DNA of 64,000 nucleotides from NCBI RefSeq assembly GCF_048403405.1, contig NZ_CP183129.1; one strand, 5' to 3'. This stretch comes from Escherichia coli. GTDB lineage: Bacteria; Pseudomonadota; Gammaproteobacteria; Enterobacterales; Enterobacteriaceae. Numbering within the stretch: position 1 is the stretch's first letter; each line of letters opens with the position of its first letter. Below the pieces are notes generated by a model that did no database searches, was not told where the DNA came from, and saw only the letters and a list, made by a program, of their open reading frames with translations. Shown here in pieces: positions 4,577 through 38,849 of the stretch. The position numbers were made by a program, and so were the translations under genes.

Positions 4577-4610
4577 TTGTAAAACGCAGATCATTATCTG
4601 TGTTTTACAG
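4577..4610. promoter_or_regulatory. 34-bp imperfect palindrome (TGTAAAAC-N16-GTTTTACA with nested CAGAT-CATT-ATCTG) upstream of ydjL; candidate operator
   Basis: 8-bp perfect inverted repeat at 4578-4585 and 4602-4609 plus inner palindrome 4587-4600, about 80 bp upstream of the ydjL start. Confidence 0.4.
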
Positions 4611-4687: not shown

Positions 4688-5764
4688 ATGAAAGCACTGG
4701 CTCGGTTTGGCAAAGCCTTTGGCGGCTACAAGATGATCGATGTCCCACAACCCATTTGTGGCCCGGAAGATGTAGTGATTGAAATTAAAGCCGCGGCAAT
4801 CTGCGGCGCAGACATGAAGCACTACAATGTCGATAGCGGTTCTGATGAGTTTAACTCTATCCGCGGCCATGAGTTCGCAGGTTGTATTGCGCAGGTTGGT
4901 GAAAAAGTCAAAGACTGGAAAGTGGGGCAACGCGTCGTGTCGGATAACAGCGGTCACGTCTGCGGCGTTTGTCCGGCCTGTGAACAAGGTGATTTTCTGT
5001 GTTGTACAGAAAAAGTAAACCTTGGTCTGGATAACAATACCTGGGGCGGTGGTTTTTCCAAATATTGTCTGGTTCCTGGTGAAATTCTCAAAATTCATCG
5101 TCATGCATTGTGGGAAATCCCTGATGGTGTTGATTATGAGGACGCAGCCATACTTGACCCTATCTGTAATGCCTATAAATCCATCGCGCAGCAATCGAAA
5201 TTCCTCCCTGGTCAGGATGTGGTCGTCATCGGCACTGGCCCACTCGGGCTGTTCTCCGTACAAATGGCGCGGATTATGGGGGCGGTAAATATCGTCGTCG
5301 TTGGTCTACAAGAAGATGTGGCGGTCCGCTTCCCGGTTGCAAAAGAACTGGGTGCGACGGCAGTAGTAAATGGTTCTACCGAAGATGTGGTGGCGCGCTG
5401 CCAGCAAATTTGTGGCAAAGACAATCTGGGACTGGTGATTGAATGCTCCGGTGCCAATATCGCACTGAAACAAGCCATCGAAATGCTCCGTCCGAACGGG
5501 GAAGTGGTACGCGTTGGAATGGGCTTCAAACCTCTTGATTTCTCGATTAATGACATTACCGCCTGGAACAAAAGCATCATTGGGCATATGGCCTATGACT
5601 CCACCTCATGGCGTAACGCTCTCCGGCTATTAGCCAGCGGCGCTATCAAAGTCAAACCGATGATCACGCATCGTATCGGCCTGTCGCAATGGCGCGAAGG
5701 GTTTGATGCGATGGTCGATAAAACCGCAATCAAAGTGATCATGACTTACGACTTTGATGAATAA
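4688..5764 (+). CDS. ydjL: zinc-dependent alcohol/polyol dehydrogenase (MDR family)
   Basis: 358 aa; GHEFAG and Cys-rich structural zinc motif CGVCPACEQGDFLCC; first gene of compact ydj cluster. Confidence 0.85.
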   Translation: MKALARFGKAFGGYKMIDVPQPICGPEDVVIEIKAAAICGADMKHYNVDSGSDEFNSIRGHEFAGCIAQVGEKVKDWKVGQRVVSDNSGHVCGVCPACEQGDFLCCTEKVNLGLDNNTWGGGFSKYCLVPGEILKIHRHALWEIPDGVDYEDAAILDPICNAYKSIAQQSKFLPGQDVVVIGTGPLGLFSVQMARIMGAVNIVVVGLQEDVAVRFPVAKELGATAVVNGSTEDVVARCQQICGKDNLGLVIECSGANIALKQAIEMLRPNGEVVRVGMGFKPLDFSINDITAWNKSIIGHMAYDSTSWRNALRLLASGAIKVKPMITHRIGLSQWREGFDAMVDKTAIKVIMTYDFDE

Positions 5765-5790
5765 CTACTCTCCTGAAGGAACGTTATCGC

Positions 5791-7170
5791 ATGGAACAGA
5801 TAACAAAACCGCATTGTGGTGCACGGCTGGATCGCTTACCGGATTGCCGCTGGCATTCGTCAATGTTTGCCATCGTCTCGTTTGGCTTGCTTGTCTGCTG
5901 GAGTAATGCCGTTGGTGGCTTGATCCTCGCGCAGCTGAAAGAGTTGGGCTGGACAGATAATTCCACCACTGCCACATTCTCAGCAATCACGACCGCCGGA
6001 ATGTTTCTCGGTGCGCTGGTTGGCGGCATCATCGGTGACAAAACCGGTCGCAGAAATGCGTTCATCCTCTATGAGGCCATTCATATTGCCTCGATGGTGG
6101 TCGGTGCTTTTTCACCGAATATGGATTTCCTTATTGCCTGCCGTTTTGTGATGGGCGTTGGGCTGGGAGCTTTACTGGTGACGCTGTTTGCTGGTTTCAC
6201 CGAATATATGCCCGGTAGAAATCGCGGAACGTGGTCCAGTCGGGTTTCTTTTATTGGCAACTGGTCATATCCGCTCTGTTCATTGATTGCGATGGGACTC
6301 ACGCCGCTGATTAGTGCAGAGTGGAACTGGCGAGTACAACTGCTTATCCCTGCAATATTGTCGCTTATCGCTACGGCGCTGGCCTGGCGCTACTTTCCTG
6401 AATCCCCGCGCTGGCTGGAATCGCGCGGACGGTATCAGGAAGCCGAGAAAGTCATGCGGAGTATAGAAGAAGGCGTCATACGCCAGACGGGAAAACCTTT
6501 GCCGCCCGTGGTTATTGCTGATGACGGTAAAGCGCCACAAGCGGTGCCGTATTCAGCCTTAATGACAGGAGTATTACTGAAACGCGTGATATTAGGCTCT
6601 TGTGTGCTGATTGCCATGAACGTTGTGCAGTACACACTAATTAACTGGTTGCCAACAATATTCATGACCCAGGGGATTAATTTAAAAGACTCGATTGTTT
6701 TAAATACCATGAGTATGTTTGGCGCGCCATTTGGTATTTTTATTGCTATGCTGGTGATGGATAAAATTCCGCGTAAAACAATGGGTGTGGGGCTATTAAT
6801 CCTGATTGCGGTGCTCGGATATATCTATTCACTGCAAACCAGTATGTTGCTCATAACGTTGATTGGTTTCTTCCTGATTACTTTCGTCTATATGTACGTT
6901 TGCTATGCCTCGGCAGTGTATGTCCCTGAGATCTGGCCGACAGAGGCCAAATTACGTGGCTCCGGTCTGGCGAATGCAGTAGGGCGAATCAGTGGTATTG
7001 CCGCACCTTATGCCGTTGCAGTGCTGCTCAGTAGTTATGGCGTAACGGGAGTCTTTATTCTTCTGGGGGCGGTTTCAATTATTGTCGCAATTGCTATCGC
7101 CACCATTGGAATTGAAACCAAAGGTGTCTCCGTTGAAAGTTTAAGTATTGATGCAGTAGTCAATAAATAA
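5791..7170 (+). CDS. ydjK: MFS transporter (sugar/metabolite:H+ symporter type)
   Basis: 459 aa, about 12 predicted TM segments, MFS motif GDKTGRR; paralogous to YdjE in the same cluster. Confidence 0.85.
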   Translation: MEQITKPHCGARLDRLPDCRWHSSMFAIVSFGLLVCWSNAVGGLILAQLKELGWTDNSTTATFSAITTAGMFLGALVGGIIGDKTGRRNAFILYEAIHIASMVVGAFSPNMDFLIACRFVMGVGLGALLVTLFAGFTEYMPGRNRGTWSSRVSFIGNWSYPLCSLIAMGLTPLISAEWNWRVQLLIPAILSLIATALAWRYFPESPRWLESRGRYQEAEKVMRSIEEGVIRQTGKPLPPVVIADDGKAPQAVPYSALMTGVLLKRVILGSCVLIAMNVVQYTLINWLPTIFMTQGINLKDSIVLNTMSMFGAPFGIFIAMLVMDKIPRKTMGVGLLILIAVLGYIYSLQTSMLLITLIGFFLITFVYMYVCYASAVYVPEIWPTEAKLRGSGLANAVGRISGIAAPYAVAVLLSSYGVTGVFILLGAVSIIVAIAIATIGIETKGVSVESLSIDAVVNK

Positions 7171-7186
7171 TACTGGTGGATTCAAA

Positions 7187-8230
7187 ATGAAAAATTCAAA
7201 AGCAATATTGCAGGTGCCGGGCACAATGAAAATTATTTCAGCAGAAATACCTGTGCCTAAAGAAGATGAAGTTTTGATTAAAGTGGAATATGTCGGTATT
7301 TGTGGTTCAGATGTACATGGTTTTGAATCAGGCCCGTTTATTCCGCCTAAAGACCCAAATCAAGAAATTGGCTTGGGTCATGAATGCGCCGGGACGGTTG
7401 TGGCTGTGGGAAGCCGTGTGCGCAAATTTAAAGCGGGGGATCGGGTAAATATCGAACCTGGCGTTCCTTGCGGTCACTGTCGTTACTGTCTGGAAGGCAA
7501 ATATAACATCTGCCCGGACGTTGATTTTATGGCGACACAACCTAACTACCGCGGCGCATTAACGCACTATCTGTGTCATCCGGAGAGCTTTACTTACAAA
7601 CTGCCCGACAATATGGACATGATGGAAGGGGCGCTGGTGGAGCCTGCTGCAGTCGGGATGCATGCCGCGATGCTGGCAGATGTTAAACCGGGTAAGAAGA
7701 TAATTATTCTGGGAGCGGGTTGTATTGGTTTGATGACGTTGCAAGCGTGCAAATGCCTGGGAGCTACGGATATTGCCGTCGTTGATGTACTGGATAAACG
7801 TCTGACAATGGCGGAACAGCTCGGCGCGACAGTGGTTATTAACGGTGCAAAAGAAGACACTATTGCACGCTGTCAGCAATTTACCGAAGAAATGGGCGCA
7901 GATATTGTTTTCGAAACAGCGGGTTCTGCGGTCACCGTTAAACAGGCACCTTATCTGGTAATGCGCGGCGGTAAAATTATGATTGTTGGTACTGTACCGG
8001 GCGATTCGGCAATCAATTTCCTCAAAATCAATCGCGAAGTCACTATTCAGACAGTATTCCGCTATGCCAATCGTTATCCGGTCACGATTGAAGCTATTTC
8101 CTCAGGGCGATTCGATGTGAAATCGATGGTGACACATATTTACGATTATCAGGATGTACAACAGGCATTTGAAGAGTCGGTTAACAACAAACGCGACATT
8201 ATTAAAGGCGTTATTAAAATTAGCGATTAA
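7187..8230 (+). CDS. ydjJ: zinc-dependent alcohol/polyol dehydrogenase (MDR family)
   Basis: 347 aa; GHECAG and CGHCRYC zinc motifs; paralogue of YdjL. Confidence 0.85.
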   Translation: MKNSKAILQVPGTMKIISAEIPVPKEDEVLIKVEYVGICGSDVHGFESGPFIPPKDPNQEIGLGHECAGTVVAVGSRVRKFKAGDRVNIEPGVPCGHCRYCLEGKYNICPDVDFMATQPNYRGALTHYLCHPESFTYKLPDNMDMMEGALVEPAAVGMHAAMLADVKPGKKIIILGAGCIGLMTLQACKCLGATDIAVVDVLDKRLTMAEQLGATVVINGAKEDTIARCQQFTEEMGADIVFETAGSAVTVKQAPYLVMRGGKIMIVGTVPGDSAINFLKINREVTIQTVFRYANRYPVTIEAISSGRFDVKSMVTHIYDYQDVQQAFEESVNNKRDIIKGVIKISD

Positions 8231-8250
8231 TTAATACGGGAGAACAGAAT

Positions 8251-9087
8251 ATGCTCGCAGATATCAGATATTGGGAAAACGATGCCACAAATAAACATTA
8301 TGCAATTGCCCATTTTAACGTATGGAATGCAGAAATGTTGATGGGCGTTATCGACGCAGCCGAAGAAGCGAAATCACCGGTTATTATTTCTTTTGGTACA
8401 GGTTTTGTCGGGAACACCTCATTTGAAGATTTCTCTCACATGATGGTATCAATGGCAAAAAAAGCAACGGTGCCGGTAATAACTCATTGGGATCATGGTC
8501 GGAGTATGGAAATTATTCATAACGCCTGGACTCATGGTATGAATTCATTAATGCGTGATGCTTCCGCATTTGATTTCGAAGAAAATATTCGTTTAACCAA
8601 AGAGGCTGTTGATTTCTTCCATCCGCTGGGTATTCCGGTAGAGGCAGAATTAGGGCATGTCGGTAATGAAACCGTTTATGAAGAAGCGCTGGCGGGCTAT
8701 CACTATACCGATCCTGACCAGGCGGCTGAATTTGTTGAACGTACGGGCTGTGACTCATTGGCTGTCGCCATCGGCAACCAACATGGGGTTTATACGTCAG
8801 AGCCACAATTGAATTTTGAGGTCGTCAAACGCGTACGCGATGCCGTTTCTGTTCCGCTGGTTTTGCACGGCGCATCGGGGATCAGTGATACCGACATTAA
8901 AACTGCAATTTCGTTGGGTATCGCGAAAATCAACATTCATACGGAGCTCTGTCAGGCCGCAATGGTAGCAGTGAAAGAAAACCAGGATCAGCCTTTCCTG
9001 CATTTAGAACGTGAAGTACGTAAAGCTGTAAAAGAACGGGCATTGGAAAAAATTAAACTGTTCGGTTCTGATGGCAAAGCGGAATAA
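8251..9087 (+). CDS. ydjI: class II (metal-dependent) ketose-bisphosphate aldolase family protein
   Basis: 278 aa TIM-barrel aldolase-like sequence with HWDHG motif. Confidence 0.8.
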   Translation: MLADIRYWENDATNKHYAIAHFNVWNAEMLMGVIDAAEEAKSPVIISFGTGFVGNTSFEDFSHMMVSMAKKATVPVITHWDHGRSMEIIHNAWTHGMNSLMRDASAFDFEENIRLTKEAVDFFHPLGIPVEAELGHVGNETVYEEALAGYHYTDPDQAAEFVERTGCDSLAVAIGNQHGVYTSEPQLNFEVVKRVRDAVSVPLVLHGASGISDTDIKTAISLGIAKINIHTELCQAAMVAVKENQDQPFLHLEREVRKAVKERALEKIKLFGSDGKAE

Positions 9088-9091
9088 TGAT

Positions 9092-10039
9092 ATGGATAAT
9101 CTCGACGTTATTTGTATAGGTGCCGCTATTGTTGATATTCCATTGCAACCGGTCAGTAAAAATATCTTTGATGTGGATTCTTATCCTCTTGAAAGAATCG
9201 CAATGACCACCGGGGGTGATGCAATAAATGAAGCAACAATTATTTCTCGTCTGGGCCATCGCACAGCATTAATGAGTCGTATTGGTAAAGATGCCGCCGG
9301 GCAATTTATTCTCGACCATTGCCGCAAAGAGAATATTGATATTCAAAGCCTGAAGCAGGACGTCAGCATAGATACCTCAATTAACGTTGGACTGGTGACG
9401 GAGGATGGCGAGCGGACGTTTGTCACAAACTGTAACGGCAGTCTGTGGAAATTGAATATTGACGATGTTGATTTTTCGCGGTTTTCTCAGGCGAAATTAT
9501 TATCTCTGGCCAGTATTTTCAACAGTCCTCTATTGGATGGTAAAGCGCTAACAGAAATTTTTACGCAAGCTAAAGCCCGGCAGATGATTATCTGTGCCGA
9601 TATGATCAAACCGCGGTTGAATGAAACGCTGGATGATATTTGCGAAGCATTGAGTTATGTCGATTATCTGTTTCCTAATTATGCCGAGGCAAAATTACTC
9701 ACCGGGAAAGAGACACTGGAGGAAATTGCTGACTGCTTTCTTGCGTGCGGCGTAAAAACGGTGGTGATTAAAACGGGTAAAGACGGCTGCTTTATCAAGC
9801 GTGGTGACATGACGATGAAGGTGCCGGCGGTCGCAGGAATAACCGCCATCGACACCATTGGCGCGGGCGATAACTTTGCTTCAGGTTTTATTGCGGCACT
9901 GTTAGAAGGCAAAAATCTGCGTGAATGCGCACGCTTTGCCAATGCAACGGCGGCTATCTCGGTTCTAAGCGTCGGTGCCTCCACCGGCGTAAAAAACAGA
10001 AAGCTGGTCGAACAATTGCTGGAAGAATACGAAGGATAA
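9092..10039 (+). CDS. ydjH: sugar kinase of the ribokinase/PfkB family
   Basis: 315 aa from Met MDNLDVICIG; PfkB signature GAGDNFASGF; ORF track start 9071 would overlap ydjI. Confidence 0.8.
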   Translation: MDNLDVICIGAAIVDIPLQPVSKNIFDVDSYPLERIAMTTGGDAINEATIISRLGHRTALMSRIGKDAAGQFILDHCRKENIDIQSLKQDVSIDTSINVGLVTEDGERTFVTNCNGSLWKLNIDDVDFSRFSQAKLLSLASIFNSPLLDGKALTEIFTQAKARQMIICADMIKPRLNETLDDICEALSYVDYLFPNYAEAKLLTGKETLEEIADCFLACGVKTVVIKTGKDGCFIKRGDMTMKVPAVAGITAIDTIGAGDNFASGFIAALLEGKNLRECARFANATAAISVLSVGASTGVKNRKLVEQLLEEYEG

Positions 10040-10048
10040 TGAAGGCAA

Positions 10049-11029
10049 ATGAAAAAGATACCTTTAGGCACAACGGATATTACGCTTTCGCGAATGGGGT
10101 TGGGGACATGGGCCATTGGCGGCGGTCCTGCATGGAATGGCGATCTCGATCGACAAATATGTATTGATACGATTCTTGAAGCCCATCGTTGCGGCATTAA
10201 CCTGATTGATACTGCGCCAGGATATAACTTTGGCAATAGTGAAGTTATCGTCGGTCAGGCGTTAAAAAAACTGCCCCGTGAACAGGTTGTAGTAGAAACC
10301 AAATGCGGCATTGTCTGGGAACGAAAAGGGAGTTTATTCAACAAAGTTGGCGATCGGCAGTTGTATAAAAACCTTTCCCCGGAATCTATCCGCAAAGAGG
10401 TAGAAGCCAGCTTGCAACGTCTGGGTATTGATTACATCGATATCTACATGACGCACTGGCAGTCGGTGCCGCCATTTTTTACGCCGATCGCTGAAACTGT
10501 CGCAGTGCTCAATGAGTTAAAGGACGAAGGGAAAATTCGCGCTATAGGCGCTGCTAACGTCGATGCTGACCATATCCGCGAGTATCTGCAATATGGTGAA
10601 CTGGATATTATTCAGGCGAAATACAGTATCCTCGACCGGGCAATGGAAAGCGAACTGCTGCCGCTATGTCGTGATAATGGCATTGTGGTACAGGTTTATT
10701 CGCCGTTAGAGCAGGGATTGTTGACCGGTACCATCACTCGTGATTACGTTCCGGGCGGCGCTCGGGCAAATAAAGTCTGGTTCCAGCGTGAAAACATGCT
10801 GAAAGTGATTGATATGCTTGAACAGTGGCAGCCACTCTGTGCTCGTTATCAGTGCACAATTCCCACTCTGGCACTGGCGTGGATATTAAAACAGAGTGAT
10901 TTAATCTCCATTCTTAGTGGGGCTACTGCACCGGAACAGGTACGCGAAAATGTCGCGGCATTGAATATCAACTTATCGGATGCAGACGCAACATTGATGA
11001 GGGAAATGGCAGAGGCCCTGGAGCGTTAA
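10049..11029 (+). CDS. ydjG: aldo-keto reductase (NADH-dependent methylglyoxal reductase type)
   Basis: 326 aa AKR-family ORF, 9 bp after ydjH. Confidence 0.85.
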   Translation: MKKIPLGTTDITLSRMGLGTWAIGGGPAWNGDLDRQICIDTILEAHRCGINLIDTAPGYNFGNSEVIVGQALKKLPREQVVVETKCGIVWERKGSLFNKVGDRQLYKNLSPESIRKEVEASLQRLGIDYIDIYMTHWQSVPPFFTPIAETVAVLNELKDEGKIRAIGAANVDADHIREYLQYGELDIIQAKYSILDRAMESELLPLCRDNGIVVQVYSPLEQGLLTGTITRDYVPGGARANKVWFQRENMLKVIDMLEQWQPLCARYQCTIPTLALAWILKQSDLISILSGATAPEQVRENVAALNINLSDADATLMREMAEALER

Positions 11030-11165
11030 ATACTCAACACGATTCACCTCTGTTTCTGTGAAAACTGTGATGAAAATCTGTGATTCAAACAGGTTATTTT
11101 GAAAGTAAACATCGGTTATGCGATAATCGCGCTAATGTGATGTAAAAAGATACAGGGGTGTAATC

Positions 11166-11923
11166 GTGGCGGCAAAAGACAGGATTCAGGCAATTAAGCA
11201 AATGGTTGCCAACGATAAAAAGGTGACAGTCTCAAATTTGAGTGGGATTTTTCAGGTAACCGAAGAAACCATTCGCCGCGATCTCGAGAAGCTGGAAGAT
11301 GAAGGCTTTTTGACCAGAACCTATGGTGGTGCTGTTTTAAATACAGCGATGTTGACGGAGAATATCCATTTTTATAAGCGCGCTTCATCGTTTTATGAAG
11401 AGAAGCAGCTTATTGCACGCAAGGCACTACCCTTTATCGACAATAAAACCACTATGGCAGCCGATTCCAGTAGTACCGTTATGGAATTGCTCAAATTGTT
11501 GCAGGACCGTAGTGACCTGACGTTGCTAACTAACTCGGCGGAAGCGATTCATGTTCTGGCTCAATCAGAAATTAAAGTCGTTTCAACGGGGGGGAACTAA
11601 ACAAAAATACACTTTCCCTGCAAGGAAGAATTACTAAAGAGATCATCAGCCGCTACCATGTCGATATCATGGTAATGAGTTGTAAAGGTCTTGATATTAA
11701 CAGCGGCGCGCTGGACTCTAACGAAGCGGAAGCTGAAATCAAAAAGACAATGATCCGTCAGGCGACAGAGGTTGCGTTATTGGTTGATCACTCTAAGTTT
11801 GATCGCAAAGCTTTTGTCCAGTTAGCTGACTTTAGTCATATTAATTACATAATAACTGATAAATCACCGGGTGCAGAGTGGATAGCATTTTGCAAAGACA
11901 ATAATATCCAGCTGGTGTGGTAA
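11166..11923 (+). pseudogene. ydjF: DeoR-family transcriptional regulator interrupted by a -1 frameshift in a G7 tract (11588-11594)
   Basis: N-terminal HTH ORF 11166-11600 (GTG start) and C-terminal sugar-binding-domain ORF 11669-11923 are in different frames; reading continues as ..VVSTGG/GELNKNTLSLQGR.. if one nucleotide is added in the G run. Confidence 0.6.
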
Positions 11924-12040: not shown

Positions 12041-13399
12041 ATGGAACAATATGATCAAATTGGCGCAAGACTGGACCGCTTGCCTTTGGCCCGGTTTCAT
12101 TATCGTATATTTGGTATTATAAGCTTTAGTCTGTTATTAACGGGTTTTTTGAGTTATTCAGGCAATGTTGTTTTAGCAAAGCTGGTAAGCAATGGATGGT
12201 CAAATAATTTCCTCAATGCCGCCTTTACCTCGGCATTAATGTTTGGTTATTTCATCGGCTCTCTTACCGGTGGGTTCATCGGTGATTATTTTGGGCGGCG
12301 CAGGGCTTTTCGCATAAATCTTCTCATCGTCGGTATTGCGGCAACAGGGGCCGCTTTTGTCCCTGATATGTACTGGCTCATCTTCTTTCGCTTCCTGATG
12401 GGCACAGGAATGGGGGCGCTGATTATGGTTGGCTATGCTTCGTTTACGGAGTTTATCCCCGCGACGGTGCGTGGAAAATGGTCCGCGCGGCTCTCATTTG
12501 TCGGTAACTGGTCGCCCATGTTGTCTGCGGCGATAGGCGTGGTGGTTATCGCTTTTTTTAGTTGGCGGATAATGTTTCTGCTGGGTGGTATTGTCATACT
12601 GTTAGCCTGGTTTCTCTCAGGTAAATACTTTATTGAGTCGCCTCGATGGTTGGCGGGGAAAGGACAAATCGCAGGTGCAGAAAGCCAACTTCGTGAAGTA
12701 GAGCAGCAAATTGAAAGAGAGAAGAGTGTTCGTTTACCCCCGCTTACTTTGAATCAGAGCAACAGCAAGGCTAACGTAATCAATGGTACTTTCTGGCTGC
12801 TGTTTAAAGGGGAAATGTTACGACGTACATTAGTCGCGATTACTGTTTTAATTGCAATGAATATTTCACTTTATACCATCACCGTATGGATACCGACCAT
12901 ATTTGTTAACTCCGGCATTGATGTCGATAAATCAATATTAATGACTGCTGTTATTATGATTGGCGCTCCGGTAGGAATATTTATTGCGGCATTAATTATT
13001 GATCATTTTCCTCGTCGATTATTTGGCTCCGCCTTACTTATTATTATTGCCGTGTTAGGCTATATCTATTCAATTCAGACTACAGAGTGGGCGATTTTAA
13101 TCTATGGCCTGGTGATGATCTTCTTTTTATACATGTATGTTTGCTTCGCGTCGGCGGTTTATATCCCGGAGCTCTGGCCAACGCATTTACGCTTGCGCGG
13201 TTCGGGTTTCGTTAATGCCGTCGGACGGATCGTCGCGGTCTTCACGCCTTATGGCGTTGCGGCACTATTAACGCATTATGGGTCAATCACGGTGTTTATG
13301 GTGCTTGGCGTGATGTTAGTGCTCTGTGCGCTGGTTCTCTCCATTTTTGGCATCGAAACGCGGAAGGTGTCGCTGGAAGAGATTTCTGAGGTGAATTAA
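12041..13399 (+). CDS. ydjE: MFS transporter, paralogue of YdjK
   Basis: 452 aa; N-terminus MEQ..ARLDRLP and motif GDYFGRR parallel YdjK. Confidence 0.85.
   Translation: MEQYDQIGARLDRLPLARFHYRIFGIISFSLLLTGFLSYSGNVVLAKLVSNGWSNNFLNAAFTSALMFGYFIGSLTGGFIGDYFGRRRAFRINLLIVGIAATGAAFVPDMYWLIFFRFLMGTGMGALIMVGYASFTEFIPATVRGKWSARLSFVGNWSPMLSAAIGVVVIAFFSWRIMFLLGGIVILLAWFLSGKYFIESPRWLAGKGQIAGAESQLREVEQQIEREKSVRLPPLTLNQSNSKANVINGTFWLLFKGEMLRRTLVAITVLIAMNISLYTITVWIPTIFVNSGIDVDKSILMTAVIMIGAPVGIFIAALIIDHFPRRLFGSALLIIIAVLGYIYSIQTTEWAILIYGLVMIFFLYMYVCFASAVYIPELWPTHLRLRGSGFVNAVGRIVAVFTPYGVAALLTHYGSITVFMVLGVMLVLCALVLSIFGIETRKVSLEEISEVN

Positions 13400-32785: not shown

Positions 32786-38849
<6,064 letters not shown>

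Follow-up and report, generated by a model that had tools for sequence, protein, structure and literature searches.

In the 64-kb stretch of Escherichia coli DNA analysed here (64,000 nucleotides of contig NZ_CP183129.1, called the window below), the gene ydjF is written as a pseudogene of the DeoR/GlpR family of regulators, broken at a run of seven G (G7) where its nearest intact relative has eight (G8). This is an ordinary lesion at a derived G8 homopolymer, which is either repeatedly miscounted in assemblies or repeatedly slipping. The chance that the window's G7 is a miscount of length made in sequencing or assembly seems about even, and this reading is slightly favoured over real slippage. 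Under it, a G8 run at a homopolymer hot spot would have been undercalled from long reads during sequencing or assembly, the strain's real ydjF would be G8 and intact, and G7 would not be a stable property of the lineage. Coordinates are given in the numbering of the 64-kb window, and ydjF lies on the + strand.

The split reading frame of ydjF

The G7 homopolymer was read at 11588-11594 in the context caacGGGGGGGaactaa, with the flanks GTTTCAAC GGGGGGG AACTAAAC, and no other G/C run of seven or more bases occurs within the window. Three features describe the gene as it is written:

11166..11600, + strand: 5' part of ydjF, from the list of open reading frames (ORFs); GTG start, 144 codons, ending in VVSTGGN and then TAA (11598-11600)
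11588..11594, + strand: G7 homopolymer and frameshift site, placed by comparison with intact alleles
11594..11923, + strand: out-of-frame remainder of ydjF, equal to residues 144-252 (ELNKNTL...IQLVW), the second half of the DeoRC sensor domain

The 5' part codes for the DeoR-type helix-turn-helix (HTH) at residues 6-60, followed by ~67 residues from the start of the DeoRC sensor domain. The C-terminal frame is open already from 11576, with its first ATG-initiated ORF at 11669-11923 (84 amino acids, aa); (11669-11166) mod 3 is 2, and the third base of the ACG codon is 11588. The sequence-only reading that preceded this work had claimed that ydjF is split by a one-nucleotide frameshift in the G run and that one added nucleotide would fuse the parts. 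Every coordinate it gave was correct (11166-11600, 11669-11923 and G7 at 11588-11594), and inserting one G, or reading base 11594 a second time, yields exactly the 252-aa product WP_000719088.1, the intact YdjF of close relatives. The junction of the repaired protein reads IKVVSTGGELNKNTLSLQGRITKEI; the junction quoted earlier, VVSTGG and then GELNK, has one G too many if taken literally and is otherwise accurate.

Pfam finds PF08220 (HTH_DeoR) at residues 6-60 of the repaired protein with E = 5e-17, and DeoRC at 77-233. HTH_DeoR is contained within the 144-aa ORF and the 84-aa ORF (11669-11923) is placed in DeoRC, so that no one polypeptide in the window holds a complete DeoRC: the domain is cut at residue 144, and more than half of it is therefore lost. 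The written allele codes for no functional DeoR-type regulator, because translation ends after 144 codons inside the effector-binding domain. In its repaired form, with HTH_DeoR and DeoRC in 252 aa, the protein resembles the known members of the family of sugar-phosphate-responsive regulators (DeoR, GlpR, AgaR, SrlR, UlaR and FucR), and ydjF also adjoins catabolic genes for a kinase and an aldolase; the cut sensor domain is where the window's allele departs from them. YdjF aligns with the structure of the C-terminal domain of E. coli DeoR (7L6L), including a Gly-Gly-Glu (GGE) motif, and the break point coincides with this motif.

The split is not a chance pattern of ORFs, because the region is widespread in E. 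coli genomes and the ydjF of K-12 (b1770) is one continuous coding sequence of 759 nucleotides (nt). The window's gene is orthologous and syntenic with b1770, standing between ydjG and ydjE in both. The codons at the site are ACG GGT GGG GAA in K-12. The nearest intact allele, from CFSAN061763, equals the window over the whole gene save for ACG GGG GGG GAA, an uninterrupted G8, and has the same neighbours; a three-way alignment of the window, K-12 and CFSAN061763 genes has a mean column identity of 99%. Had intact homologues ended near 11600, the short 5' ORF would have been the normal form of the gene. They do not, being 252 aa long, and the split reading survives.

The same seven bases might instead act as a site of recoding, with a -1 ribosomal slip on G_GGG_GGG, or transcriptional slippage, restoring wild-type YdjF and leaving the allele partly functional. 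This is very improbable. The heptamer at 11588-11594 does stand in the X_XXY_YYZ register, the 0-frame stop follows one codon after it, and the -1 slip product would be the full-length WP_000719088.1; in register and product the site is like that of E. coli dnaX, where A_AAA_AAG is paired with a downstream hairpin. Unlike dnaX, ydjF has a poor heptamer and lacks a stimulatory structure: no stable fold was found in the downstream segment 11595-11680 (minimum free energy -12.3 kcal/mol, z = -0.91), and 42 of 200 shuffled sequences fold at least as well. The frameshifted layout is a rare state and is not conserved, since ~97% of the alleles with an uninterrupted run and all of the interrupted ones are in frame. 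Efficient slippery heptamers in E. coli are A_AAA_AAG-like, not G_GGG_GGG, and slippage of RNA polymerase needs longer runs, usually of A/T; at best a leak at the per-cent level would be expected. The sequence argues weakly for ribosomal frameshifting at ydjF.

Length of the G run across E. coli

The ydjF region was matched in 4,329 of 5,426 complete E. coli genomes; the remaining ~1,100 have no match to it, and one match falls on a record labelled as a plasmid. The region is 861 nt long in the window and 862 nt in all 39 other genomes listed. Around the tract there are four local haplotypes, two with G8 and two with GGGTGGGG. By exact 88-nt matches the G8 haplotypes comprise 171 and 63 complete genomes, while GGGTGGGG is carried by K-12, BL21, ATCC 8739 and the bulk of the ~4,330 complete genomes with ydjF. 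An uninterrupted run of any length is found in about 240 of about 4,330 (~5%) and the interrupted form in ~95%; in Citrobacter orthologues the same T-G-G-E is encoded by ACC GGT GGT GAG, with GGTGGT at the tract. In most E. coli the tract is GGGTGGGG and in Citrobacter it is GGTGGT; the G8 run is therefore a derived, synonymous (GGT to GGG), lineage-specific accident. The sequence-only reading had called for this comparison of tract lengths, which gave G8 in the nearest relatives and GGGTGGGG in K-12. It had also named these two forms, each giving one continuous ORF, as what resequencing would have to show if the split were wrong; both occur in relatives as the intact state, which says nothing of the DNA of this strain.

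Complete RefSeq genomes with an uninterrupted run number 234 with G8, five with G7 and two with G9, so that out-of-frame alleles make up ~3% of them:

G7: B1.H1.39; 2013C-3264; 2014C-3061; UID2309220009; UID2309220003
G9: Nord1; H9

The Prokaryotic Genome Annotation Pipeline (PGAP) flags ydjF as frameshifted in all seven (for example V8957_RS13570 in B1.H1.39). This kind of lesion is already known, the same one-base change at the same site of the same gene being annotated in other strains. In a public sequence collection, the exact 144-aa truncated product occurs in at least 34 contigs, in 45 blocks, against 2,007 blocks for just a single ydjH allele from the window's lineage. Intact 252-aa YdjF is present in 26 of the 27 longest contigs of the lineage with that ydjH allele; the one contig without it belongs to an NCTC assembly in which further genes are split. 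Four metagenome contigs match a G6-G9 pattern, all of them with G8.

Pairwise comparison over ~20 kb around ydjF places G7 in several separate haplotype groups, beside relatives with G8 or G9 whose similarity is as high or higher. The window, B1.H1.39 and the ENA contig L008 all have G7 and differ from TUM14771, with G8, by only 1-2 mismatches. Over 18.8 kb no mismatch separates Nord1 (G9) from B1.H1.39 (G7), and TUM14771 is 2 mismatches away; H9 (G9) and UID2309220009 (G7) have 0 mismatches over 20 kb; and for the Logan contig L005, with G7, the closest complete genome is UTAK-1, with G8. The off-length alleles are scattered on the tips of near-identical haplotypes and are fixed in no clade.

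This scatter bears on another proposal of the sequence-only reading, that the run is a phase-variable site. Such a G8 run would be a hypermutable contingency switch, ON at G8 and OFF at G7 or G9, of which the window caught an OFF variant; this we consider improbable. Just as improbable is its corollary, that in the ~5% of E. coli with the run the regulator of the ydj sugar-acid cluster varies among the cells of a clonal population. The frame-changing length polymorphism among close strains that such a switch would need was found, with G7, G8 and G9 all on near-identical haplotypes in two separate lineages, part of which is perhaps technical. Conservation of the run was not found: with GGGTGGGG in ~95% of ydjF and GGTGGT in Citrobacter, this is no tract maintained by selection, and the off-length alleles, at only ~3%, are in many cases plausibly technical. 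The poly-G/C contingency loci of Neisseria, Haemophilus, Campylobacter and Helicobacter pylori likewise have an intragenic G tract in which a change of +/-1 shifts the frame, with several lengths among near-identical strains. The ydjF tract differs from them in being short, recently derived, limited to ~5% of alleles, and set in an atypical class of gene and an atypical organism. A length of eight bases is near the lower limit for known switching tracts, YdjF is a cytoplasmic metabolic regulator, unlike the surface or restriction-modification targets of switching, and E. coli is not known to use homopolymer contingency loci. The pattern of lengths argues weakly for an evolved phase-variable switch. 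If one did exist here, it would be an accidental, newly born locus of that kind in a species not known for them.

The genomes nearest to the window give the intact state at close range. The best complete genomes for window 1-25000 and 39001-64000 are TUM14771, 4621, MS 69-1, TUM1226 and GN02461, and all five are one base longer in the first segment, with G8 and an intact ydjF; in TUM14771 the additional base is the eighth G of the tract. A base-by-base comparison with TUM14771 over 61,994 bp gave nine substitutions and two indels, both of the latter being gene-breaking changes in the length of a homopolymer: G8 to G7 in ydjF and T7 to T8 in espL1. Apart from ydjF, the ydj genes have no indels relative to TUM14771.

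Among the matches listed, only strain B1.H1.39 (NZ_CP146556.1) is 100% identical over the 861-nt ydjF region, and no other complete genome of the window's haplotype carries G7. B1.H1.39 is nevertheless only 98.99% identical to the window over 50 kb, with 491 mismatches that lie mostly outside the ydj block, and the window is neither this genome nor any other of the seven with an off-length run. No complete RefSeq E. coli genome aligns with the window gap-free, and the tract pattern has no match among GTDB representatives. The two are a mosaic, near-identical at ~2-26 kb and ~1.5-2% divergent at 26-50 kb. Where B1.H1.39 has G6 in the chbR-celF spacer the window has G5 (window 46253), and astB differs by an in-frame 3 nt (AGA) at window 37663-37665.

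Miscount or slippage

A sequencing or assembly error had been offered by the sequence-only reading as an equal possibility, and given the error-bearing assemblies and the clustering by project described below it comes out no less likely than a real mutation. Here the length of a long homopolymer differs by one from near-identical genomes (G7 against G8), and across public data the variant tracks error-prone assemblies and projects rather than phylogeny. In a survey of indels against TUM14771, 7 of 14 G7 loci with an uninterrupted tract had other private homopolymer indels within 11-20 kb:

Further private homopolymer indels: L007, L009, L013, L019, L020
A single A-run change each: L005, L011

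In two genomes from the Centers for Disease Control and Prevention (CDC), 3 of 19 genes each are annotated as frameshifted in 20 kb, topB among them in 2014C-3061. In L006 and L014, whose assemblies are full of split genes, the corresponding deletion lies within an interrupted GGGTGGGG and is clearly technical. A single Bangkok project supplied two of the five complete G7 genomes, although with chromosomes of different size; their haplotype has 63 exact G8 genomes, and among the 60 of these that were listed the project is not represented.

Errors in long-read assemblies are dominated by homopolymer indels, which give rise to false pseudogenes (PMC12007338). The case of ydjF is like the false pseudogenes of Oxford Nanopore Technologies (ONT) and PacBio continuous long read (CLR) data in being a single-base change in the region's longest G/C run, sporadic across unrelated assemblies and often found with other homopolymer indels. 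It is different in that nearly all other runs of seven or more bases in the window agree with those of relatives.

The other complete genome with the window's haplotype and G7, B1.H1.39, was compared with public contigs. L009 (Logan ERR13298037) has 0 mismatches over 17 kb to L001 (NZ_CP146556.1, B1.H1.39) and three extra homopolymer deletions, A5 to A4, T7 to T6 and G5 to G4. L009 resembles noisy long-read data from that strain or from a sister of it, and because of this resemblance the B1.H1.39 assembly itself may rest on noisy long reads, as L009 hints. A literature search found no paper giving the sequencing technology of B1.H1.39. The contig name of L008 (contig_3527) has a form that we take to be typical of long-read assemblers, and is a weak hint in the same direction.

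Several observations weigh on the other side of a miscount. The window has 25 other runs of at least seven bases, none of which, besides espL1 T8, is discordant within the 62-kb alignment; because these runs agree with the nearest relative, the window's assembly is not crudely error-ridden. In 50 kb of B1.H1.39 ydjF is the sole pseudogene, and nothing else anomalous lies near the tract in L008, L010, L012, L021, Nord1 and H9. The T8 of espL1 recurs in five Logan contigs, of which the three compared are nearly identical to the window. Finally, 8-bp G:C runs count among the true indel hot spots of E. coli (PMC8510543), and genuine slippage therefore predicts the same sporadic pattern on the tips.

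These points lead to the closest alternative, a strain that is truly G7 by replication slippage, in which ydjF is a recent pseudogene whose product is a 144-aa HTH fragment, with less than half of the sensor/oligomerisation domain. We give it somewhat less than an even chance. The rate of indels in E. coli rises exponentially with the length of a run, with 8-bp G:C hot spots (PMC8510543), and ~3% of out-of-frame alleles (5 G7 and 2 G9 against 234 G8) would fit a balance of mutation and selection at a weakly selected gene, several of the off-length carriers being otherwise clean assemblies. The ydj cluster is accessory, with ~1,100 of 5,426 genomes lacking a match to the ydjF region and a prevalence that differs by phylogroup (PMC9602453), so that loss of its regulator should be tolerated. 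All seven private coding single-nucleotide polymorphisms of the window are non-synonymous, as on a very young, unselected tip branch. Against slippage, G7 goes with error-bearing assemblies and is clustered in one project, the same 62 kb contain another rare frameshift in a homopolymer, and no lineage has G7 fixed.

Besides the ydjF lesion, the window has this second frameshift and a set of private substitutions. The features concerned are:

60053-60060, - strand: T8 in espL1, a type III effector gene, with ORFs 60019-61500 (493 codons) and 59601-60053 (150 codons)
3642, 9721, 22816, 29378, 32855, 47199, 54318, 57162: private substitutions
private amino acid changes: msrB Q to K, ydjH D to E, ynjH V to I, ydjZ V to I, astC E to Q, celF P to S
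private amino acid change P to H in the ORF 53798-54430

The T8 splits espL1, which has T7 in the nearest complete genomes, and has an exact match in just 2 of 807 complete genomes. Because it recurs in Logan contigs close to the window, it may be an inherited allele and not a technical error. Eight of the nine substitutions relative to TUM14771 are private to the window among the related sequences compared; they are four transitions and four transversions, and each of the seven that lie in ORFs is non-synonymous, with no sign of purifying selection on the window's tip in these seven coding changes. They may be either uncorrected errors or the mark of a very young, unselected tip branch. The window's exact YdjH variant has no record in a large protein collection. 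A mismatch-repair mutator background was considered for the two frameshifts and seems unlikely, the spectrum of four and four being unlike that of mismatch-repair, mutT or mutY defects; the window itself does not include the repair genes. The thrS/infC side of the window (61995-64000) does not align with TUM14771, where a tyrosine recombinase and small phage-like genes adjoin espL1, which suggests an insertion in TUM14771 at the espL1 junction.

The lesion has little weight beyond annotation hygiene. If G7 is an artefact, the derived G8 run is a marker site where public E. coli assemblies repeatedly miscount, and a frameshifted ydjF in these lineages should therefore not be taken as gene loss in surveys of pangenomes or pseudogenes. 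If G7 is real, the strain lacks the only dedicated regulator beside ydjLKJIHG, a proposed L-glycero-L-galacto-octuluronate kinase/aldolase pathway, and would be a natural ydjF-null isolate, convenient for asking whether YdjF is a repressor or an activator.

YdjF, its neighbours and the upstream elements

The genes on either side of ydjF are intact:

4688..11029, + strand: ydjL-ydjK-ydjJ-ydjI-ydjH-ydjG, from the annotation of near-identical records; all six intact
12041..13399, + strand: ydjE, a major facilitator superfamily (MFS) transporter downstream of ydjF; intact

Their annotations make ydjL and ydjJ dehydrogenases, ydjK and ydjE MFS transporters, ydjI an aldolase, ydjH a kinase and ydjG a reductase. 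The K-12 record assigns YdjH and YdjI to L-glycero-L-galacto-octuluronate. A secondary source gives the best in-vitro substrate as one without natural abundance (PMC9602453). YdjF itself is listed among uncharacterised factors of the DeoR family (PMC4797297), and ydjF appears only in a list of predicted CRP targets from genomic systematic evolution of ligands by exponential enrichment (SELEX; PMC3105977). A silver-nanoparticle evolution study reports a ydjF change that is only synonymous (K80K) and irrelevant here.

From the habit of the family and the position of the gene, it is reasonable to infer that YdjF is a putative local repressor of ydjLKJIHG; that the cluster would be derepressed in a ydjF-null strain can only be inferred. 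The DeoR family includes an activator, FucR, and because of this a loss of YdjF could silence the cluster rather than derepress it. Under a genuine G7, which was given a little under an even chance, regulation of the ydj cluster would be lost, leaving it constitutive if YdjF is a repressor and silent if it is an activator.

One promoter-like element was noted before the gene:

11099..11127, + strand: TTGAAA-17-GATAAT with an upstream TG, a consensus match ~40 nt before the ydjF start

It has 10 of 12 consensus matches, and the number of such sites in the region is not above what shuffling would lead one to expect. A motif shared by a ydjL and a ydjF operator was tried and rejected, a strict pattern made from the ydjL palindrome having no match upstream of ydjF. 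That palindrome is a 14-nt inverted repeat upstream of ydjL, TGTAAAACGCAGAT / ATCTGTGTTTTACA, with its arms 4 nt apart (4578-4609). Upstream of ydjF, three close CTGTGA repeats at 11056, 11065 and 11078 (11056-11092) stand just before TTGAAA-17-GATAAT, and a fourth repeat, TGTGATG, lies at 11136 (11136-11146). The repeats upstream of ydjL and ydjF are candidate YdjF operator or CRP sites.

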